From the NCBI GenBank assembly GCA_016788485.1, contig JAEUSV010000091.1, positions 138 through 64,137 on the forward strand: DNA of 64,000 bases, written 5' to 3'. The position numbers and the translations under genes were made by a program. Origin of the DNA: Flavobacteriales bacterium. GTDB lineage: Bacteria; Bacteroidota; Bacteroidia; Flavobacteriales_F; PHOS-HE28. Below the pieces are notes generated by a model, which searched no databases, was not told the origin of the DNA, and saw nothing but the letters and a program-made list of their open reading frames with translations. This document shows, in pieces, positions 2,975 through 29,353 of the stretch (its first letter is position 1; every line of letters begins with the position of its first letter).

Positions 2975-3051
2975 GGTGCTGTCGGTTGAGGTGGTCGGTG
3001 AGACAGTAATGTGATGGTTGAGCGCGGTGGACGGTTCAGAGGCTATTCAAC

Positions 3052-3717
3052 CTATTTTCCGTATAACCAAGCTGGGCCGTAATCGATCGCCGCATGATCA
3101 GCGTAGCGTCCCGGGAATAGATCGAAGCTCTTTCCATAGGGGGTTCGATGAAATGCCTTGTCCATCCGCACCAGCCCGGCGTAATCCGGTCCGGGCACTT
3201 CGCCCAGCTCAAAGACCACGTCGAAGAGCTCGCGGGGATGAGCGTGCAGTTTGAATTCCTTCTGCTGCGCGGGTGTGAGGTCGTTCAGCATGGTCTGTAA
3301 CCAGCCTTTGGCATTGGCATGAGCCAGTACACGAGCGGCCTCGGCATCCGTAAGGCAGCGCACCTTGCGGATCACCGCCACCTGGTAGTAGCCGTCAGAA
3401 AGCTGGTTCGACGCTGGAGTCTTGCACGTGGGCAGCGTGTTGGCCTTGATGCAGATGCGCGTAATGAGCTGCAGCTCGGTAAAACTGCGGCCGGCATGCT
3501 TTTTCGCCTTCAGGGCTTGGATGTACCCGAACTGCCACAGGCCATCGCGGTGCGCGGGGTTGAAGAGCCACTCCTCGAAACCGAAACCATGCTTGCCTTC
3601 GAATAAGTCACCTTTCGGTGTCCTGCACTTCCCGCAAAACCCAGAAGGCTTCACCCAGCCATTGGCATTGGGAGTTATGCGGGTCCAAGGGCTTTGGGCA
3701 GGGACCGTCGTGCTCAT
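3052..3717 (-). CDS. hypothetical protein (221 aa), family not recognised
   Basis: Long ORF with no competing frame. The region has lower G+C than its surroundings. It contains GFGFEEWLFN and a single CxxC. Confidence 0.55.
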   Translation of the reverse strand: MSTTVPAQSPWTRITPNANGWVKPSGFCGKCRTPKGDLFEGKHGFGFEEWLFNPAHRDGLWQFGYIQALKAKKHAGRSFTELQLITRICIKANTLPTCKTPASNQLSDGYYQVAVIRKVRCLTDAEAARVLAHANAKGWLQTMLNDLTPAQQKEFKLHAHPRELFDVVFELGEVPGPDYAGLVRMDKAFHRTPYGKSFDLFPGRYADHAAIDYGPAWLYGK

Positions 3718-4903: not shown

Positions 4904-5431
4904 TCAGTCGGCGGCGGCTTCCTGCACCTCCTTCTCCACGCGCTCCAGCGCCTGCTTCACCCATTTCGTTTCGCCCAGCGCGGGCACCAGCAGCGGTGCG
5001 AACGCGCGCACCGGCGCATAGAGCACCGAGCCTTCACGCGTATTGCGGTCCGGCGTCCACGAGGCCTCTTCCCTGGCGAAAAGGATGTTGAGCAGCACGC
5101 TCAGCACGAAGGCCTTGCGCACCACCGCGAAGGCCACGCCGGCCACCTTGTTCGGCAGGCTCAGCTGCGCCACGTCAATGGCCGTGGTGAGGGCGCGGCC
5201 CAAGAGGTTCACTGCGGCCAGCACCAGCAGGAAGGTCACCAGGAAGCTCACGGCCTCCTGGCCGGGGTCCAGGCCGAACCAGCCCGCCACCCTGTCGTTG
5301 AGGTGGATGCCCGCCCAGATGCCCGCCACCCAGGCCACCAGCGAGGCCAGCTCGCGCACGAAGCCGTGCAGGAAGCCCTGCACCACCGCGAAGGCGAGCA
5401 GCGCCAGCAACACCCAGTCCAGCCAGTTCAT
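4904..5431 (-). CDS. cvpA: CvpA-family membrane protein
   Basis: Starting at the internal ATG (5431) gives MNWLDWVLLALLAFAVVQGFLHGF..., a typical CvpA N-terminus with multiple TM segments. The 64 codons upstream in the ORF track look non-coding. Confidence 0.75.
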   Translation of the reverse strand: MNWLDWVLLALLAFAVVQGFLHGFVRELASLVAWVAGIWAGIHLNDRVAGWFGLDPGQEAVSFLVTFLLVLAAVNLLGRALTTAIDVAQLSLPNKVAGVAFAVVRKAFVLSVLLNILFAREEASWTPDRNTREGSVLYAPVRAFAPLLVPALGETKWVKQALERVEKEVQEAAAD

Positions 5432-5579
5432 GGATGTGAATGTGGGGAATGTGCGGCATGTGGCAATGCGGGCCGTCCGATGGCATCTTTGCGCCCCGCA
5501 GGAAGCCGAATTCTCCCCTTTCTCATTTCCACATACCCACCCCTTGGACCTCGCATTCGAAAAACGCTGGCGCGACCTC

Positions 5580-5873
5580 ATGAAGGACATGGAGCGGCGC
5601 TTCGACGCTCCGGTGGACCTCAACGGACTGATCTTCCTGGTGGGCGTTCAGGAGCTGGGGCAGCACGCCCGCGAGTTCAAGAAGGACGAGAAGGTGGCCC
5701 TGATGCACATCGCCATCTGCGTGCTGCTCACCCCCTACGGCTACTACAAGGAACTGGGGCGCGATGCCGACGGCTGGCCGCACTTCGAGCGGGTGAAGGA
5801 CCTGCCTCCCCTCAACGAGAAGGAGCAGGAACGGCTGATGAAGGAGGCGCTATTGGACTACTTCGAACGCTGA
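5580..5873 (+). CDS. hypothetical protein (about 97 aa); start uncertain
   Basis: This is the 3' part of ORF 5043..5873, which upstream is antisense to cvpA. A coding-looking segment begins at about MKDMERRFDAPVDLNGLIFLVGVQELG. A TTG at about 5544 is an alternative start. Confidence 0.5.
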   Translation: MKDMERRFDAPVDLNGLIFLVGVQELGQHAREFKKDEKVALMHIAICVLLTPYGYYKELGRDADGWPHFERVKDLPPLNEKEQERLMKEALLDYFER

Positions 5874-5940
5874 AGGTCCTATCGCACGTGCTGTGCCGAC
5901 CGGCACGGTCACGCACGAACAATGCTGTGGGAACAGCGGT

Positions 5941-6318
5941 CTACGGGGTCACCGGCACCAGCACCACGGTCTCCTCGTTGGTCTCTTCCTCGAGGATCTT
6001 GATGATGCCCTGGCCCACGGCGCTGTCCTTGAAGCTCACGATGTCGAGCACCGCGAAGCCGGCCTGGCCCTGCTTGTAGAAGTCGGTGTAATCGAAGGAA
6101 GCCCGGCCCTGTGCGTCCGTCATCTTCTCCTGGGTGAGCCGCGTGGGGTCGCCCAGGGGATAGGTGGGGTTGGCGTAGAGCTTCACATAGGCATTGGGCA
6201 CGATGAACCCATCCTCGTCCTGGATCGTGATGATCGCGGTGGTGGGCTTCTCCTTGTTGCAGGCCGCGAAGAGCGCAGCGGTGGCCACCAGGGTAAGCAG
6301 GCGGGCGGGAAGGCGCAT
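5941..6318 (-). CDS. small lipoprotein, function unknown
   Basis: The internal ATG gives MRLPARLLTLVATAALFAAC, a lipobox with Cys. A beta-rich body follows. Confidence 0.6.
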   Translation of the reverse strand: MRLPARLLTLVATAALFAACNKEKPTTAIITIQDEDGFIVPNAYVKLYANPTYPLGDPTRLTQEKMTDAQGRASFDYTDFYKQGQAGFAVLDIVSFKDSAVGQGIIKILEEETNEETVVLVPVTP

Positions 6319-6332
6319 CGGTCGGGTCGGAT

Positions 6333-6340
6333 TACTTTTG
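6333..6340 (+). promoter_or_regulatory. candidate -7 box (TACTTTTG)
   Basis: Matches TAnnTTTG, 13 nt upstream of the ATG at 6354. Confidence 0.4.
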
Positions 6341-6353
6341 GCAGCCTTGTTGC

Positions 6354-7094
6354 TTGGCCACCAGAGCTTCAAAGGTAACAAAGCCCATGACCCCCACGCA
6401 ACGCACCCTCTCACTTCTCGCCACCACCGTGGCATTCCTGACACTTCCCCTGCTCTCCTCCGCACAGGGCAAGGGTTCCGACAAGCGCCCCCGGGTGGAG
6501 ATCCGCACCGAGCTCGGCACCATGGTGGTGGAGCTCTACAACGAAACGCCCCAGCACCGCGACAACTTCCTGAAGCTGGTGAAGGAGCACACCTACGACA
6601 GCCTGCTCTGGCACCGGGTGATCCCGCAGTTCATGATCCAGGGCGGCGACCCCACCAGCAAGCACGCCAAGCCCGGCGAGCCCCTGGGCATGGGCGGCCC
6701 CGGTTACACCGTGCCGGCCGAGTTCAACAAGTCCTTCATCCACAAGAAAGGCGCCCTTTCGGCCGCGCGCCAGGGCGACCAGGTGAACCCCACCAAGTCC
6801 AGCAGCGGCAGCCAGTTCTACATCGTGCAGGGCAAGAGCTGGCAGGCGGCCGAGATCGACATGCTGGTGAAGCGCAAGCAGATGATGAACCCCGCCGGCG
6901 ACTACAGCTACACCCCCGAGCAGGTGGCCACCTACACCAGCGTGGGCGGCACCCCGCATCTGGACGGCGACTACACCGTGTTCGGTGAGGTGGTCCAGGG
7001 CCTGGAGGTGGTGGACAAGATCGCCGCCGTGCAGTGCGGCCAGGGCGACCGGCCCGTGCAGGACGTGCACATGTGGATGCGCATCGTGAAATGA
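6354..7094 (+). CDS. cyclophilin-type peptidyl-prolyl cis-trans isomerase, secreted
   Basis: Motifs: HRVIPQFMIQGGDP, SQFYIV, YTVFGEVVQGLEVVDKI. An N-terminal signal peptide is present. The alternative start is 6387. Confidence 0.9.
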   Translation: MATRASKVTKPMTPTQRTLSLLATTVAFLTLPLLSSAQGKGSDKRPRVEIRTELGTMVVELYNETPQHRDNFLKLVKEHTYDSLLWHRVIPQFMIQGGDPTSKHAKPGEPLGMGGPGYTVPAEFNKSFIHKKGALSAARQGDQVNPTKSSSGSQFYIVQGKSWQAAEIDMLVKRKQMMNPAGDYSYTPEQVATYTSVGGTPHLDGDYTVFGEVVQGLEVVDKIAAVQCGQGDRPVQDVHMWMRIVK

Positions 7095-25376: not shown

Positions 25377-25384
25377 GTCATTTA
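25377..25384 (+). repeat. target-site duplication, left copy (GTCATTTA)
   Basis: An identical 8-mer directly abuts the other transposon end at 29346..29353. Confidence 0.9.
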
Positions 25385-25412
25385 GGGAACTATATACCAG
25401 TTGGGACAGGCC
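25385..25412 (+). repeat. left terminal inverted repeat (GGGAACTATATACCAGTTGGGACAGGCC)
   Basis: Perfect reverse complement of 29318..29345. Confidence 0.95.
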
Positions 25413-25468
25413 GGAAAGCGCGTCCCTATTGAGATGTGTGCCTCGTTCCAACAATGATCGTGGATAAG

Positions 25469-25519
25469 TGCTGACCGGTTGCTGACGGCCTGCTGATCAC
25501 CGCCGGTAGATTTGCTGAC
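25469..25519 (+). promoter_or_regulatory. four TGCTGAY direct repeats phased at 11, 11 and 22 bp
   Basis: TGCTGAC at 25469, 25480 and 25513, and TGCTGAT at 25491. The last copy abuts the ATG at 25520. Confidence 0.5.
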
Positions 25520-26062
25520 ATGGACGCCACCGAACAGTTCGCGCACTTGCGAAAACTGCTGGACGAGGCTCTCTTGCTTGTCAGTGAGCTTGAGGCTGAA
25601 CAGTTGGTTGGTTCGCATACTGTCCTGGCTAAGCCTGATGCTCACGTCCGATCGCAACTCTTGACCCCGACCGGGAAGATCCGGGGGCTGTCCGACCGTA
25701 TCATCGGTGCCTTGCGAGAGAAGCAAGAACCAATGACGGCATCCGAGTTGACGACCGCTGTGTATGATCGCCAATATGGTCTGTCATACGACGCCATGAA
25801 GCGCAGGGTGGCCGTCTGTACATCTGCTCTCCATAAACGCCAAGGCAAGCTGGTATGGCAGAAGATGGAATCCGGAGAGGTGTACTGGTACTTGCCTGAA
25901 TGGGTAGAACAGGGGAAACAGGCATGGAAGGGCTCCTTGATAACTGATCGCCTCCTGGTGGTGCATGATATGCTGAAAAGCACCCATCCCCGCCTCCAAA
26001 CACCTACGGAAAACACTGAGACTAACCCATCACCTAACGACGACGAGAGTTCCTTGTCATGA
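25520..26062 (+). CDS. transposon cargo: 180-aa hypothetical protein, possibly winged-helix
   Basis: Unique long ORF in this stretch. The central segment (LSDRIIGALREKQEPMTASELTTAVY...GKLVWQKMESGEVYWYLPEW) resembles wHTH/HARE-HTH-type layouts. That reading is inference only. Confidence 0.55.
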   Translation: MDATEQFAHLRKLLDEALLLVSELEAEQLVGSHTVLAKPDAHVRSQLLTPTGKIRGLSDRIIGALREKQEPMTASELTTAVYDRQYGLSYDAMKRRVAVCTSALHKRQGKLVWQKMESGEVYWYLPEWVEQGKQAWKGSLITDRLLVVHDMLKSTHPRLQTPTENTETNPSPNDDESSLS

Positions 26063-26150
26063 TGATCGTGTGCCGTTCGCCGCGTCGTAAGCGGTCGAAC
26101 CCGTCCCGACCGGGACAGGGCTGAGATACCAGCCGGATGAACTGCACGCA

Positions 26151-26248
26151 ACCACCGTAGCTCAAAGGATAGAGCGTCCCGCGCCACCTACTGCTGCAAC
26201 CAGGGGAGGCACTGAGGGAAGATGCAGGTTCGAGTCCTGCCGGTGGTA
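26151..26248 (+). ncRNA. 98-nt tRNA-like gene with a grossly extended anticodon arm (apex loop CTGCAAC, GCA)
   Basis: Perfect 7-bp acceptor (ACCACCG/CGGTGGT). Canonical D arm (GCTC-AAAGGATA-GAGC) and T arm (GCAGG-TTCGAGT-CCTGC). There are 47 nt between D and T arms where 21-22 are expected. Confidence 0.5.
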
Positions 26249-26493
26249 CTAGTCGCGGCCGAAGCCGGTCCCATTAGCCGTCCAACCGGGGTGGCAGCCC
26301 CGGGCTTAGGCAGAGGAGGTAGAGCTCCCAAACGCGACCCCTTATTTCAAGCGAGGCTCGGTTCCGAAGGGGGCCGGGCCTCGTCTGCAAATGTATGGTG
26401 CGAATTACTTCGATCCAAACGCCCTCCCAGTGAGGGCGCGCCACATCCAGCGCACGAGGTCGTGGATCTAGCGGAACCTGGGGTGAACGAAGC

Positions 26494-26619
26494 TCACTTG
26501 CGCTTGCTCTTCTTGGTGGCCTTCTTGACGGCCTTCTTGGGCTTCTTGACGGCCTTGGTCATGGCGACCTTTAGCACGTCCTGAAACTCGCCCTGGATCT
26601 TCAGCGTCCGGTCTTCCAT
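26494..26619 (-). CDS. transposon cargo: 41-aa Lys-rich micro-protein, absent from the ORF track
   Basis: Hand translation gives MEDRTLKIQGEFQDVLKVAMTKAVKKPKKAVKKATKKSKRK. Nearly every codon ends in G or C. It starts 28 nt downstream of the transposase stop on the same strand. Confidence 0.45.
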   Translation of the reverse strand: MEDRTLKIQGEFQDVLKVAMTKAVKKPKKAVKKATKKSKRK

Positions 26620-26647
26620 GTCGTGAAGGTATGCGACCGACCCGGCC

Positions 26648-27571
26648 TCACTGGGCCTTGCCGATCAGTTGACGGTAGGTGATGCGGCGACCTTCGGCCT
26701 GCTGAACGGCCAGCGTATGGCGGTCCTGCTGGCTGAACTCCCGCGTGTTGTACCGGAACGTGAACTCGTCGCAGTAGCGATCCAGGTGCTTGGGGCTCAC
26801 GTAGTGGTACACACCTACCATACCGCGCTTGAAGAGCGCCCAAAAGCTCTCGATCGTGTTGGTGTGGGCGGTTCCACGCACGTACTCACCACCGCTGTGG
26901 TTCACCGTTTCGTGGATGTAGGTCCGGGCCAGTCCGGTATAGCCGTTGTGCTCGTCCGTGTACACGGTGGCATCAATGGCTACGTGCTTCCGCATAATGG
27001 GCTGGATGGTGGCCTTCTTGCTGTTCAGCACCGACTTGGCGACCACCTTACCACCACGCTGAACGATGCCGAACACGGCGGTTTTGCCAGCGCCACCCTG
27101 GGCACCTTCGATGCGCTTGTTGAGGTGCTTGTTCGCCTCCTTGCCACCGACATAGGTTTCGTCGCACTCAACTTGCCCGGCCAGCATTGCGGGCGCGTTC
27201 TCCTTCAGCATTTCACGAAGGCGCGATAGCACGAACCATGCACTCTTCTGGGTGATGCCAAGATCCTTGGCGAGCTGCACGCTGCTGATGCCTTTGGGGT
27301 GGTTGCAGGCGAGGTAGATGCCAATGAACCACACGCGGAGGGGAAGCTTCGTGTTCTCGAAGATGGTGCCGGTGGTAACACTGAACTTCTTGCCGCACTC
27401 CTTGGAGCAGCACTTGTAGCGCTTGCCGCCTTCGATGCTGTAGGCACCTACGGTACCACAGAAGTGGCACGCGGCCGGGCCTTGGCCCCAGCGCAGGGTG
27501 GCAAGGTGCTTACGGCAAACCCCTTCGTCGCTGAATTGGGTGGTGAGCTGGATGATATTCTCGAAGCGCAT
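26648..27571 (-). CDS. IS1595-family (ISXO2-like) DDE transposase
   Basis: N-terminal zinc ribbon (CPHCG-like: ACHFCG...YKCCSKEC), an HTH (ISSVQLAKDLGITQKSAWF), and a DDE core (ECDETYVGG...VYTDEHNGY...HTNTIESFW). Confidence 0.9.
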   Translation of the reverse strand: MRFENIIQLTTQFSDEGVCRKHLATLRWGQGPAACHFCGTVGAYSIEGGKRYKCCSKECGKKFSVTTGTIFENTKLPLRVWFIGIYLACNHPKGISSVQLAKDLGITQKSAWFVLSRLREMLKENAPAMLAGQVECDETYVGGKEANKHLNKRIEGAQGGAGKTAVFGIVQRGGKVVAKSVLNSKKATIQPIMRKHVAIDATVYTDEHNGYTGLARTYIHETVNHSGGEYVRGTAHTNTIESFWALFKRGMVGVYHYVSPKHLDRYCDEFTFRYNTREFSQQDRHTLAVQQAEGRRITYRQLIGKAQ

Positions 27572-27592
27572 GGGGCTGTGTTATTGAACAGC

Positions 27593-27616
27593 CCAAAGGT
27601 ATATACAATGCATATA
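27593..27616 (-). promoter_or_regulatory. TIR-like promoter/operator module upstream of the transposase gene
   Basis: The minus strand reads TTGACA-N17-TACCTTTG (-33/-7 like). It overlaps the palindrome GTATATAC (27598-27605) and CATATAC (27610-27616). Confidence 0.5.
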
Positions 27617-27620
27617 CGTG

Positions 27621-27779
27621 TCAAGTGGTGGCCGAAAGCTTTTCCTCCAGGGTCCGGCGGATGAAGTCGGACAAGGTCCGTCCCTCCTTGGCCGCAGCCT
27701 TGACGAGGCGAGCCTTCAACTTGGCGTCTATGCGGATCAGGACGTTCGTGTCCTTGGGCGGGAGCGTGGTCTTTGCCAT
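27621..27779 (-). CDS. transposon cargo: 52-aa ribbon-helix-helix (CopG/Arc-like) protein
   Basis: MAKTTLPPKDTNVLIRIDAKLKARLVKAAAKEGRTLSDFIRRTLEEKL shows a beta-strand then helix-helix pattern typical of RHH regulators and antitoxins. Confidence 0.65.
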   Translation of the reverse strand: MAKTTLPPKDTNVLIRIDAKLKARLVKAAAKEGRTLSDFIRRTLEEKLSATT

Positions 27780-27787
27780 GGGGCCAA

Positions 27788-27805
27788 GATATACAACGTA
27801 TATAC
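27788..27805 (-). promoter_or_regulatory. second copy of the promoter/operator module, upstream of the RHH gene
   Basis: ATATACAACGTATATACG matches ATATACAATGCATATACG (27601-27618) at 16 of 18 positions. It contains GTATATAC at 27798-27805. Confidence 0.5.
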
Positions 27806-27860
27806 GCAGAAGCGCCCTGGTCGGGAAACCAGGGCGCTTCTGCGAGGGGGCAGGAAGCAA

Positions 27861-28043
27861 CTATGATGCTTCGCCAGAAACGCGGTAGACAAAGGACCCC
27901 ACCGCCTTGAGGCCGTCATATTCTACGCTGTCGTAGACGAATGAGCTTGCCATGTCAAGGGGCGAATCCTCAAGTGCCTCAACCGCGCTAATCATCTCAT
28001 CATCAAGGCCTAATGCTCTGAGTTGGTCAATAATCTCGGACAT
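27861..28043 (-). CDS. transposon cargo: 60-aa acidic protein, translationally coupled to the protease gene
   Basis: Its ATG shares one nt with the protease stop (TAATG at 28041-28045). The sequence is Asp/Glu-rich (MSEIIDQLRALGLDDEMISAVEALEDSPLD...). Confidence 0.55.
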   Translation of the reverse strand: MSEIIDQLRALGLDDEMISAVEALEDSPLDMASSFVYDSVEYDGLKAVGSFVYRVSGEAS

Positions 28044-29086
28044 TACTTCGTGGCCGTTTTAGGGTCGTGCAATTTAATGACGCTGTATGACTCCGAAATG
28101 AACAGTTTAGCGAAGCTGGTCCTCTCGAACAGGAAATGCATAACCGCCCACAGCCTCCGCATCGCTACGTCAAGGCCCTTAATCGACTCAGCATGAGTGA
28201 TTTTCAACTCGCACTCACTCCACAGAACATCCCTCGGAATACCCCGGCTATGGGACTTCCACTTTGAGGCTCTGGCGAGCCGCTCGGCAATCTCGCCCGC
28301 CCGCTTCCGCTTCTCATCTGGCGTTACGGGGATACCGACTTTCGTCGTTTGATGCTCTGTCCAGTTCTTGAACTTGTAGTCATGGAGGTAGTTTTCAACC
28401 ATCTCCTTTGAATAAGCGGTGGCCTGGATCGCGTTCCCGATTTCCTTGGCGTCAAGCCTATTCAAGATCTGTACGTCTGTCCAGTCTGGCTTTTCGTTCT
28501 TGAGCATCCTTGCCTTGCCCCTATCCTGAATATCCTGGATAACGGTCAAGACTCCTTGTAATGGAACGAACACGCCATCTCGATTCGGGCCCTGAGGGTC
28601 GGTTGGCCCTAAGTACGACGATGGCCCCATGATAATGTCATTACCGCTCGTGGCAAATATGGTTCCTGCGCTCATTGCGGATTGCAGGATAATGAAGGCC
28701 ACGTCATCGAACTTCGCCCGAATCTTATCAACGAACTTGGCCACTTGCTGAGCACTTCCGCCAGGGGTAACAAGGACAATATCAAGTGCCTTTCCAGTGG
28801 CGTCGACCGAGTTTAGTAGTTCGTCAAACGGAAGGTCATCGGTGTTGTCGATTGCCGTAAATGCGCCAACCTTTGCGTTGATGACGTTCGCTGCATAGCA
28901 AATGATTGGTCGCTTACGAATCGCTTGAATCTCCTTCAGGCCCAACACAATGTCATCGGGGGCTGCTATTTGTGTCAGTCCAGCCGCAACCAAGCTGGCG
29001 TATTCTTCCCCAACCTTCATTATATCATAAGGTGTTTTCCTGGTCGGTGGCGTTGGGGGGGGCGGTGGAGGAGGTGTGGTTGCCAT
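28043..29086 (-). CDS. transposon cargo: SDH-family Clp/crotonase-fold serine protease (serine dehydrogenase proteinase-like)
   Basis: LDIVLVTPGGSAQQVAKFVDKIRAKFDDVAFIILQSAMSAGTIFATSGNDIIMGPSSYLGPTDPQ matches the characteristic core of this family. The N-terminus has a PPPPPPPTPP run. The alternative start is 29113. Confidence 0.75.
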   Translation of the reverse strand: MATTPPPPPPPTPPTRKTPYDIMKVGEEYASLVAAGLTQIAAPDDIVLGLKEIQAIRKRPIICYAANVINAKVGAFTAIDNTDDLPFDELLNSVDATGKALDIVLVTPGGSAQQVAKFVDKIRAKFDDVAFIILQSAMSAGTIFATSGNDIIMGPSSYLGPTDPQGPNRDGVFVPLQGVLTVIQDIQDRGKARMLKNEKPDWTDVQILNRLDAKEIGNAIQATAYSKEMVENYLHDYKFKNWTEHQTTKVGIPVTPDEKRKRAGEIAERLARASKWKSHSRGIPRDVLWSECELKITHAESIKGLDVAMRRLWAVMHFLFERTSFAKLFISESYSVIKLHDPKTATK

Positions 29087-29149
29087 GTTTCTAATACATA
29101 GACCCCTAAGCAAGGAAATGTTTTTGAAACCCTACCGCATCACCCAAGT

Positions 29150-29157
29150 GTATATAC
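29150..29157 (-). promoter_or_regulatory. third GTATATAC module, upstream of the protease gene
   Basis: CCCAAGTGTATATAC parallels CCCAAAGGTATATAC (27591) and the TIR sequence CCCAACTGGTATATAG (29325). Confidence 0.45.
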
Positions 29158-29317
29158 ATTACCTTCGACACGTTCTTTCACATCGCGGGCACCGGGTCAG
29201 TAGGCCGGTGACGAAGCAGGGGGCGGGCGCATGAACCATCCCCAGGGAGCCTAGCTAAGGCACCAACACCCGCAGACCCGCAAATCGAGGCCGACCGGCC
29301 AGCGGGCGCACTCATAG

Positions 29318-29345
29318 GGCCTGTCCCAACTGGTATATAGTTCCC
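29318..29345 (+). repeat. right terminal inverted repeat
   Basis: GGCCTGTCCCAACTGGTATATAGTTCCC is the perfect reverse complement of 25385..25412. Confidence 0.95.
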
Positions 29346-29353
29346 GTCATTTA
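29346..29353 (+). repeat. target-site duplication, right copy (GTCATTTA)
   Basis: Identical to 25377..25384. Confidence 0.9.

Follow-up and report, generated by a model that had tools for sequence, protein, structure and literature searches.

RESULTS

The locus and its genes

The DNA analyzed here, referred to as the window, is a stretch of 64,000 nucleotides (64 kb) from a Flavobacteriales bacterium (contig JAEUSV010000091.1, positions 138 to 64,137 of the forward strand). Its subject is a serine protease gene, the gene for a small acidic protein that is coupled to it, and the IS1595-family transposon on which both genes lie (Table 1). A first-pass annotation, made from the sequence alone, had proposed that three co-oriented open reading frames (ORFs) on the minus strand at 27621-29113, encoding the protease, the acidic mini-protein, and a ribbon-helix-helix (RHH) protein, form a candidate module reminiscent of toxin/immunity, addiction, or abortive-infection logic. 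We confirmed that the three ORFs are present at these positions. The interpretation as a whole is partly supported: the protease and the mini-protein are a conserved, mobile two-gene cassette, and the RHH protein is assigned to the transposon.

Table 1. Features of the transposon and its cassette, in window coordinates (L036 is the locus of the closest relative of the transposon)
Feature	Position	Strand	Basis or remark
Serine-dehydrogenase-proteinase (SDH)-type ClpP/crotonase-fold serine peptidase, 347 aa	28043..29086	-	PF01972, AlphaFold2 (AF2), Foldseek
Acidic partner (mini-protein), 60 aa, isoelectric point (pI) 4.05	27861..28043	-	ATG overlaps protease stop (TAATG)
RHH protein, 52 aa	27621..27779	-	PF01402, NF041551; assigned to transposon regulatory module
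Operator-like repeat ATATACAACGTATATACG	27789..27806	.	Just 5' of RHH start; same layout in L036
Operator-like repeat GTATATACAATGCATATACG	27599..27618	.	Between RHH stop and transposase start; same layout in L036
Single GTATATAC copy, minus-strand context AATGTATATACACT	29150..29157	.	5' of protease start
Perfect stem-loop, terminator-like, no clear U tract	27805..27844	-	Between mini-protein stop and RHH promoter
IS1595-family cargo transposon, 3,961 bp	25385..29345	.	Perfect inverted repeats, 8-bp target-site duplication, lower G+C
Left terminal inverted repeat GGGAACTATATACCAGTTGGGACAGGCC	25385..25412	+	2 matches vs 0 expected
Right terminal inverted repeat, 28 nt	29318..29345	-	Perfect pair to left inverted repeat
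IS1595-family DDE transposase, 307 aa, N-terminal Zn ribbon	26648..27571	-	PF12762, PF12760, NF033547

The protease belongs to a distinct clade with a conserved C-terminal domain

The protease contains the sequence VLVTPGGSAQQ...ILQSAMSAGTIFATSGNDIIMGPSSYLGPTDPQ. It would be 356 aa long if translation began at an alternative TTG start at 29113. The proline run that had been noted at its N-terminus is present: the terminus, MATTPPPPPPPTPPT, is a proline-rich, basic tail. The assignment to the SDH/Clp fold also holds up. PF01972 (SDH_protease) is matched at 34.7 bits against a gathering threshold (GA) of 31.3, with only residues 104-175 in the match, and Foldseek searches with the AF2 model of the protease, which has a pLDDT of 91, return remote ClpP-fold matches only (SppA, ClpP, and 1510-N; E values of ~1e-4). 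In a profile search of PDB sequences, only the protease 1510-N matches; its catalytic Ser97 is aligned with Ser139 of the window protease, and the entry for its S97A mutant shows Ala in the Ser139 column. The features expected of the ClpP/crotonase fold, a serine in a G/A-x-S-A-G turn and a TPGG oxyanion motif, are both found. These alignments predict that the nucleophile is Ser139 in AMSAG, the serine that the first-pass annotation had singled out; proteolysis itself is likewise a prediction. No transmembrane segment is predicted in the protease.

A word-indexed search recovered 296 homologues that are 50-56% identical to the protease, ~345-370 aa long, and aligned with it from end to end; PF01972 is carried by all 120 of the homologues listed (of 296). 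The C-terminal ~150 aa had been described as an extension. This region is conserved along the whole ~350-aa family and is therefore an integral domain; its invariant residues include W276/K277, H245, and H279, and phrog_11747, a PHROG of unknown function, covers residues 59-336 of the protease (E value of 4e-42). A profile search against 1.84 billion cluster representatives gave 4,426 matches at an E value of ≤1e-3 and only 212 at ≤1e-30. Therefore, the close clade is a small branch of a large superfamily. This divergence is also seen with the equivalog NF047768, whose cutoff is 250 bits and against which the protease scores 40.3 bits; NCBI names some of its relatives by this equivalog despite the divergence. 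As a separate identity, we considered a phage head-maturation protease and rejected it, since NF045542 scores 19 bits against a cutoff of 120 and the pair does not lie in a head module. On phage contigs, the pair is located near integrase, lysis, or restriction-modification (RM) genes or upstream of the terminase gene.

The mini-protein belongs to a family with a conserved N-terminus

The mini-proteins share the N-terminal motif (L/I)LKxLG(F/W)Sx(E/D)(F/L)I, which the window protein carries as IIDQLRALGLDDEMISAV (in short form, LxxLG). When run against 5.8 billion sequences, a profile of the family recovers the window protein at an E value of 7.8e-6. The 45 proteins that match this profile are all labeled "hypothetical," and none has a Pfam domain; at least 12 of them share the size of their longest contig with a match to the protease. 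While the N-terminus is conserved in the family, the C-terminus is variable. The AF2 model of the window protein has helices at residues 2-10 and 15-25 with pLDDT values of 85-89, and the remainder is below 50. The protein is predicted to be soluble, with no DNA-binding fold in the model and no Pfam match. The pI values of the partners are 4.1-5.7 versus a median pI of 11.2 for the N-terminal tails of the proteases.

The protease and the mini-protein are conserved together

To follow the pair across genomes, we fetched 24 loci from contigs representing one genome per species, of which 20 bacterial loci could be tested in that they have sequence downstream of the protease gene. In all but one of these 20 loci (19), the end of the protease gene is followed by a homologous acidic ORF of 59-78 aa, whose start lies -3 to +21 nt from the protease stop codon. 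The tight coupling of the two genes is real. The loci bearing the pair come from Chloroflexota, Bacteroidota, Nitrospirota, delta- and gammaproteobacteria, and Poribacteria. The pair is also present in all 7 of the close viral contigs with downstream sequence and in the metagenomic loci L025 and L030. In an all-versus-all comparison of the ORFs of the 24 loci and the window, the protease and its partner are the only clusters that span multiple loci, and Pfam and PADLOC scans of 149 neighbors revealed no recurrent third family. Thus, the protease and the mini-protein form a conserved, mobile two-gene cassette.

Two of the loci have features of their own. In a gammaproteobacterial metagenome-assembled genome (L016, ~5900-6979), the protease gene can be read only with a frameshift close to its 5' end, which points to a pseudogene or else to an error in the assembly; its partner is intact there, with an ATGA overlap. 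In a Crocinitomicaceae locus (L003), a degraded gene for a distant IS1595-family transposase (28%) lies just 5' of the pair at 5040-5768, and the locus also holds a C5 methylase gene and an integrase gene.

The RHH protein goes with the transposase

The RHH protein matches PF01402 (RHH_1) at 27.7 bits (GA, 20.5) and NF041551 as well. The shared operator that the first-pass annotation had reported is real: the window holds four copies of the palindrome GTATATAC, where 0 would be expected, and three of them are upstream of the genes for the transposase (27599), the RHH protein (27798), and the protease (29150). The fourth copy, at 2469-2476, is far outside the transposon. A 17-mer, ATATACAAYGYATATAC, is found at 27601 and 27789 only.

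We scanned metagenomes for relatives of the transposase and fetched 80 insertion sequence (IS) loci. The closest relative, L036, has a transposase that is 69% identical and, directly upstream of it, a gene for a homologous RHH protein (E value of 3e-21). The same operator precedes the RHH start and recurs after the RHH gene, ahead of the transposase gene, and neither the protease nor the mini-protein is present. Reading the two sequences against each other, we found a 14-nt match between the GTATATAC site upstream of the window protease and the RHH operator of L036. The remaining 79 transposase relatives (≤45% identity) have no such RHH protein, and no RHH protein recurs near the protease pair in the all-versus-all comparison, which took in the neighbors at 22 bacterial loci. 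Because L036 keeps the RHH gene, the operators, and the transposase gene without the cassette, we assigned the RHH protein to the transposition module. By this layout it is a predicted transposon regulator that travels with the transposase and not a component of the protease cassette. It would bind the GTATATAC operators at its own promoter and at that of the transposase gene and probably also the single GTATATAC site at the cassette promoter. Through the shared operator, it probably controls all three promoters, that of the cassette included.

These observations decide how much of the three-gene module remains. Co-localization across genomes holds for the protease and the mini-protein and fails for the RHH protein. 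An obligate system of protease, mini-protein, and RHH regulator is highly improbable: the genes are all co-oriented, GTATATAC stands upstream of the protease gene as it does of the RHH and transposase genes, and the RHH protein may regulate the cassette here, but the other loci examined have no RHH gene close to the pair, the stretch from the pair to the RHH gene contains a strong hairpin (17-nt arms in the repeat search; a fold of 18 pairs at -39.8 kcal/mol, z score of -8.4), and L036 has the RHH gene, operators, and transposase gene together without the pair. We found no cassette that has an RHH homologue and lacks an IS1595 transposase.

The pair is found in prophages, near RM and integrase genes, and elsewhere

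Within the close clade, the pair lies between tail/lysis genes and integrase/Exc genes in a P2-like prophage and between a lysis amidase gene and an integrase gene in a second prophage (L116). It adjoins a type II RM system and an integrase gene in L118 and is upstream of the terminase gene in L121. In a genomic island, it is surrounded by genes for HsdR, RadC, a serine recombinase, and ImmA-like and BrxC-like proteins. Other neighbors of the pair encode a type IIG RM enzyme, HEC-01, AriA-like ATPases, methyltransferases, and three integrases.

Enterobacterial relatives occupy a slot downstream of prophage repressors

A sister clade of enterobacterial proteases, ~295-300 aa long, is 34% identical to the window protease over residues 89-331 (E value of 4e-29) and has the same C-terminal motifs. 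The enterobacterial protease gene is directly 3' of a CI repressor gene and co-oriented with it, and it is followed at once by an ORF of 56-67 aa; this placement downstream of the repressor recurs in E. coli, Klebsiella, and Enterobacter, in four immunity regions that differ from one another. The small ORFs share the motif MIxxLKxxGLhNxPxFxLAYGP. The slot in E. coli is flanked by cI and N and is the position that rexAB holds in lambda, and the pair there (WP_021518647.1/WP_167851737.1) is present in 17-20 of 5,426 complete E. coli genomes. What is common with rexAB is the slot downstream of the repressor and the shared orientation with cI; there is no sequence or fold relationship, and the window copy lies on a transposon rather than in a prophage. 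In three E. coli genomes, the small ORF has been retained directly 3' of cI, next to hicAB, and the protease gene is absent; one of the three is strain 48 (L136, with the ORF at 3014-3184).

The vehicle is an IS1595-family transposon

The first-pass annotation placed the module on a transposon, and this is borne out by its terminal inverted repeats, by an 8-bp target-site repeat on either side of the element (GTCATTTA; 25377-25384 and 29346-29353), as seen in the flanking sequence, and by the transposase, which matches PF12762 (DDE_Tnp_IS1595; E value of 2e-45), NF033547 (E value of 4e-60), and PF12760. These features, with the Zn ribbon, are shared with the ISXO2-like, passenger gene-carrying members of the IS1595 family; what the window element adds is ~2.9 kb of cargo and an upstream RHH gene with paired operators. 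The G+C content of the transposon is 51-58%, versus 60-69% for most of the flanking DNA. It is inserted between ssb and a gene that we read as encoding a universal stress protein, and its intact ends indicate that the insertion is recent. A nearby ORF has what we read as a Por/T9SS-like tail at its C-terminus, which would fit a Bacteroidota host. An exact-sequence look-up of the transposase found no recorded copy, and plasmid matches to it are all ≤50% identical. The sole exact copy of the protease (L027) is from the same locus and organism as the window and hence is not independent.

Besides the cassette, the cargo contains a 180-aa ORF and a tRNA-like gene. The ORF (25520-26062, plus strand) runs against the direction of the other genes; searches of Pfam, NCBIfam, and PHROG gave no match for it, and the 80 related IS loci contain no homologue. 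The tRNA-like gene (26151-26249, plus strand) scores 52 bits against the Rfam tRNA model (GA, 29). Its acceptor, D, and T arms are canonical, but within its anticodon arm 35 nt replace the usual 9. ARAGORN labels it "tRNA-Pyl, anticodon CTA"; at minimum free energy it folds as a cloverleaf whose anticodon arm is long and imperfect, and the apical CUGCAAC would read GCA. We found no such gene in L036, L003, L025, or L028. Just 3' of the transposase gene is a lysine-rich ORF of 41 aa (…KKAVKKATKKSKRK; 26494-26619, minus strand), which is putatively coding only and is underlain by tandem 12- and 21-nt repeats.

Two further observations concern the transposition module. Right before the transposase start codon, a stem-loop is found in both the window (~27574-27595, minus strand) and L036 (~524-545), with its position kept and its sequence not kept (GGGCTGT…ACAGCCC in the window; GGTGCGT…ACGCACC in L036). 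This pattern suggests a structure that masks the ribosome-binding region. The terminal repeats hold TATATACCAGTTGGG, which resembles the promoter/operator context TATATACCTTTGGG before the transposase gene, and given this resemblance the RHH protein or the transposase may also bind the transposon ends.

DISCUSSION

A probable conflict or defense cassette on a transposon with a predicted regulator

We favor, at somewhat better than an even chance, a reading in which one IS1595 transposon carries two units, a conflict or defense cassette and an RHH-regulated transposition module. The pair is conserved amid changing neighborhoods, it lies at prophage ends and beside RM and integrase genes, and its sister clade occupies the repressor slot; therefore, it bears the signature of an accessory conflict module. 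From these contexts, the cassette is most likely such a module, expressed from mobile elements. Since the contexts bear this signature, we favor a role in antiphage defense or superinfection exclusion, and the role is likely of the kind described by the system FS_HP_SDH_sah. Thus, the part of the first-pass annotation that saw toxin, addiction, or abortive-infection logic fares in two ways: conflict or defense logic is plausible for the mobile pair, and the RHH protein, which does not recur at the other loci, is no part of it.

The composition of the pair has an antiphage precedent, because the DefenseFinder catalogue includes a two-gene system named FS_HP_SDH_sah (PMC13532340), and the statement in the first-pass annotation that no characterized system has this composition was too strong. 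In FS_HP_SDH_sah, a ClpP-fold protease with the SDH_sah domain (PF01972) is paired with a hypothetical protein that is small or lacks annotation, and the system is borne on a mobile element, as is the window pair, whose protease carries the same domain. The window protease lies in a distinct ~350-aa clade, however, and the pair is a candidate member of the system. The system is said to come from the accessory regions of phage-inducible chromosomal islands (PICI) and to have been experimentally validated, reportedly by Fillol-Salom et al. in 2022. Its likeliest relatives are the enterobacterial proteases of ~300 aa. On function, a literature search turned up nothing for the protease family, and two defense-hotspot papers name no such protease.

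If the cassette acts in defense, the protease would be the effector and the mini-protein its cognate inhibitor, substrate, or bait. The N-terminal helical hairpin of the mini-protein would dock on the protease, and the variable, disordered acidic tail could serve as a pseudosubstrate or inhibitor or, instead, as a cognate substrate or bait. Infection would then release the protease or redirect it onto a phage or host target. A more elaborate version, in which we have little confidence, is that the pair is a new protease-based immune sensor. The hypervariable acidic tail would be a bait or nucleic acid mimic that restrains the basic-tailed protease, a phage protein binding or destroying the bait would unleash the protease, and enterobacterial prophages would have adopted this logic independently in their repressor slot, with an unrelated partner.

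Several results weigh against a defense role. PADLOC-DB v2 gave no meaningful match for the protease, the partner, the RHH protein, or the enterobacterial, Gordonia, or Shewanella relatives. At one locus (L019), the protease is intact and the partner is absent, so the partner is not strictly obligatory. Many neighbors of the pair are housekeeping genes; in L030, the pair is among housekeeping genes with no mobile or defense marker nearby. Homology between the window and enterobacterial partners was considered and is unproven: hhalign gives a probability of <1%, with LKxxG alone aligned. Because the two partner families are not detectably homologous, the evidence of the repressor slot transfers through the protease only.

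Other explanations for the pair

We asked whether the pair might instead be a toxin-antitoxin (TA) or addiction module, with the protease as toxin and the acidic mini-protein as a labile antitoxin that together stabilize the carrier element. The genes are translationally coupled and sit on mobile elements, the disordered acidic tail is typical of antitoxins, and the three E. coli genomes that have the small ORF minus the protease are reminiscent of orphan antitoxins. There is also a broader likeness to type II TA systems with RHH antitoxins, in which small, coupled genes on mobile elements likewise go together with an RHH protein, palindromic operators, and a small partner that is acidic and disordered. 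However, the RHH protein of the window goes with the transposase and not with the protease. The acidic partner does not have the fold of a DNA-binding protein, neither protein of the pair brings a DNA-binding domain for autoregulation, and no DNA-binding regulator is conserved with the protease. An intact protease persists without the partner in L019, and no mini-protein partner accompanies the SDH proteases that are more distant (25-31% identity). Proteases of the ClpP-type fold are, to our knowledge, not an established class of TA toxin. We therefore consider an addiction role unlikely; it overlaps with abortive-infection defense and is not exclusive of it, and toxicity is only predicted.

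Another reading is that the pair is a protease and its substrate, of the NfeD/STOPP-stomatin or leader-peptide type, in which the conserved N-terminus is a recognition leader and the variable C-terminus is freed to act as a peptide whose role, cellular or signaling, has nothing to do with phages. The only solved relative by sequence is the NfeD protease 1510-N (PDB 3bpp and 2deo; E value of 0.005 with the catalytic Ser aligned; 26% identity by Foldseek). 1510-N cleaves the product of its own operon partner. It has in common with the window protease a ClpP-like fold, TPGG and (A/M)SAGT motifs, and the aligned catalytic Ser; its gene, like that of the window protease, is coupled to another gene, in its case that of the protein acted on, and the conserved N-terminus and variable C-terminus of the partner fit a leader arrangement. 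Yet the C-terminal half of the window protease is unrelated to 1510-N, both window proteins are predicted to be soluble and have no membrane anchor, and the partner is a 60-aa acidic protein with no SPFH/stomatin match. PF25145 (NfeD1b_N) is below its GA at 21.2 versus 40 bits, and the loci examined show neither a modifying enzyme nor an exporter or signal peptide near the pair. Maturation of a peptide is thus a doubtful explanation. The patchy, mobile distribution of the pair argues against a housekeeping role.

Adjacency to repressors raises the further idea that the protease is an antirepressor in the manner of ImmA/ImmR, cleaving the adjacent CI protein in prophages or the RHH protein in the window and so bringing about induction or transposition. 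The pair immediately adjoins CI repressor genes in the four enterobacterial immunity regions and the RHH regulator gene in the window, but close-clade pairs lie far from any repressor (beside integrase or lysis genes, an RM system, or housekeeping genes), the conserved partner is a mini-protein and not a DNA-binding protein, and L036 has the RHH and transposase genes without the protease. We regard this mechanism as very unlikely.

Implications

The protease clade is distinct, and its conserved partner family has not been described before; in the window, both are carried by an IS1595 transposon that is probably regulated by its RHH protein. The mini-protein family is unnamed and is covered neither by a Pfam entry nor by the literature. 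The IS1595 element, with its probable RHH control and swappable cargo, provides an example of how such a cassette moves, and the related pair in E. coli, Klebsiella, and Enterobacter prophages offers a tractable entry point. If the defense reading is true, the cassette would add a protease effector class, and a ClpP-fold protease with a dedicated mini-protein would be a two-gene system that is widespread across phyla, prophages, and transposons.

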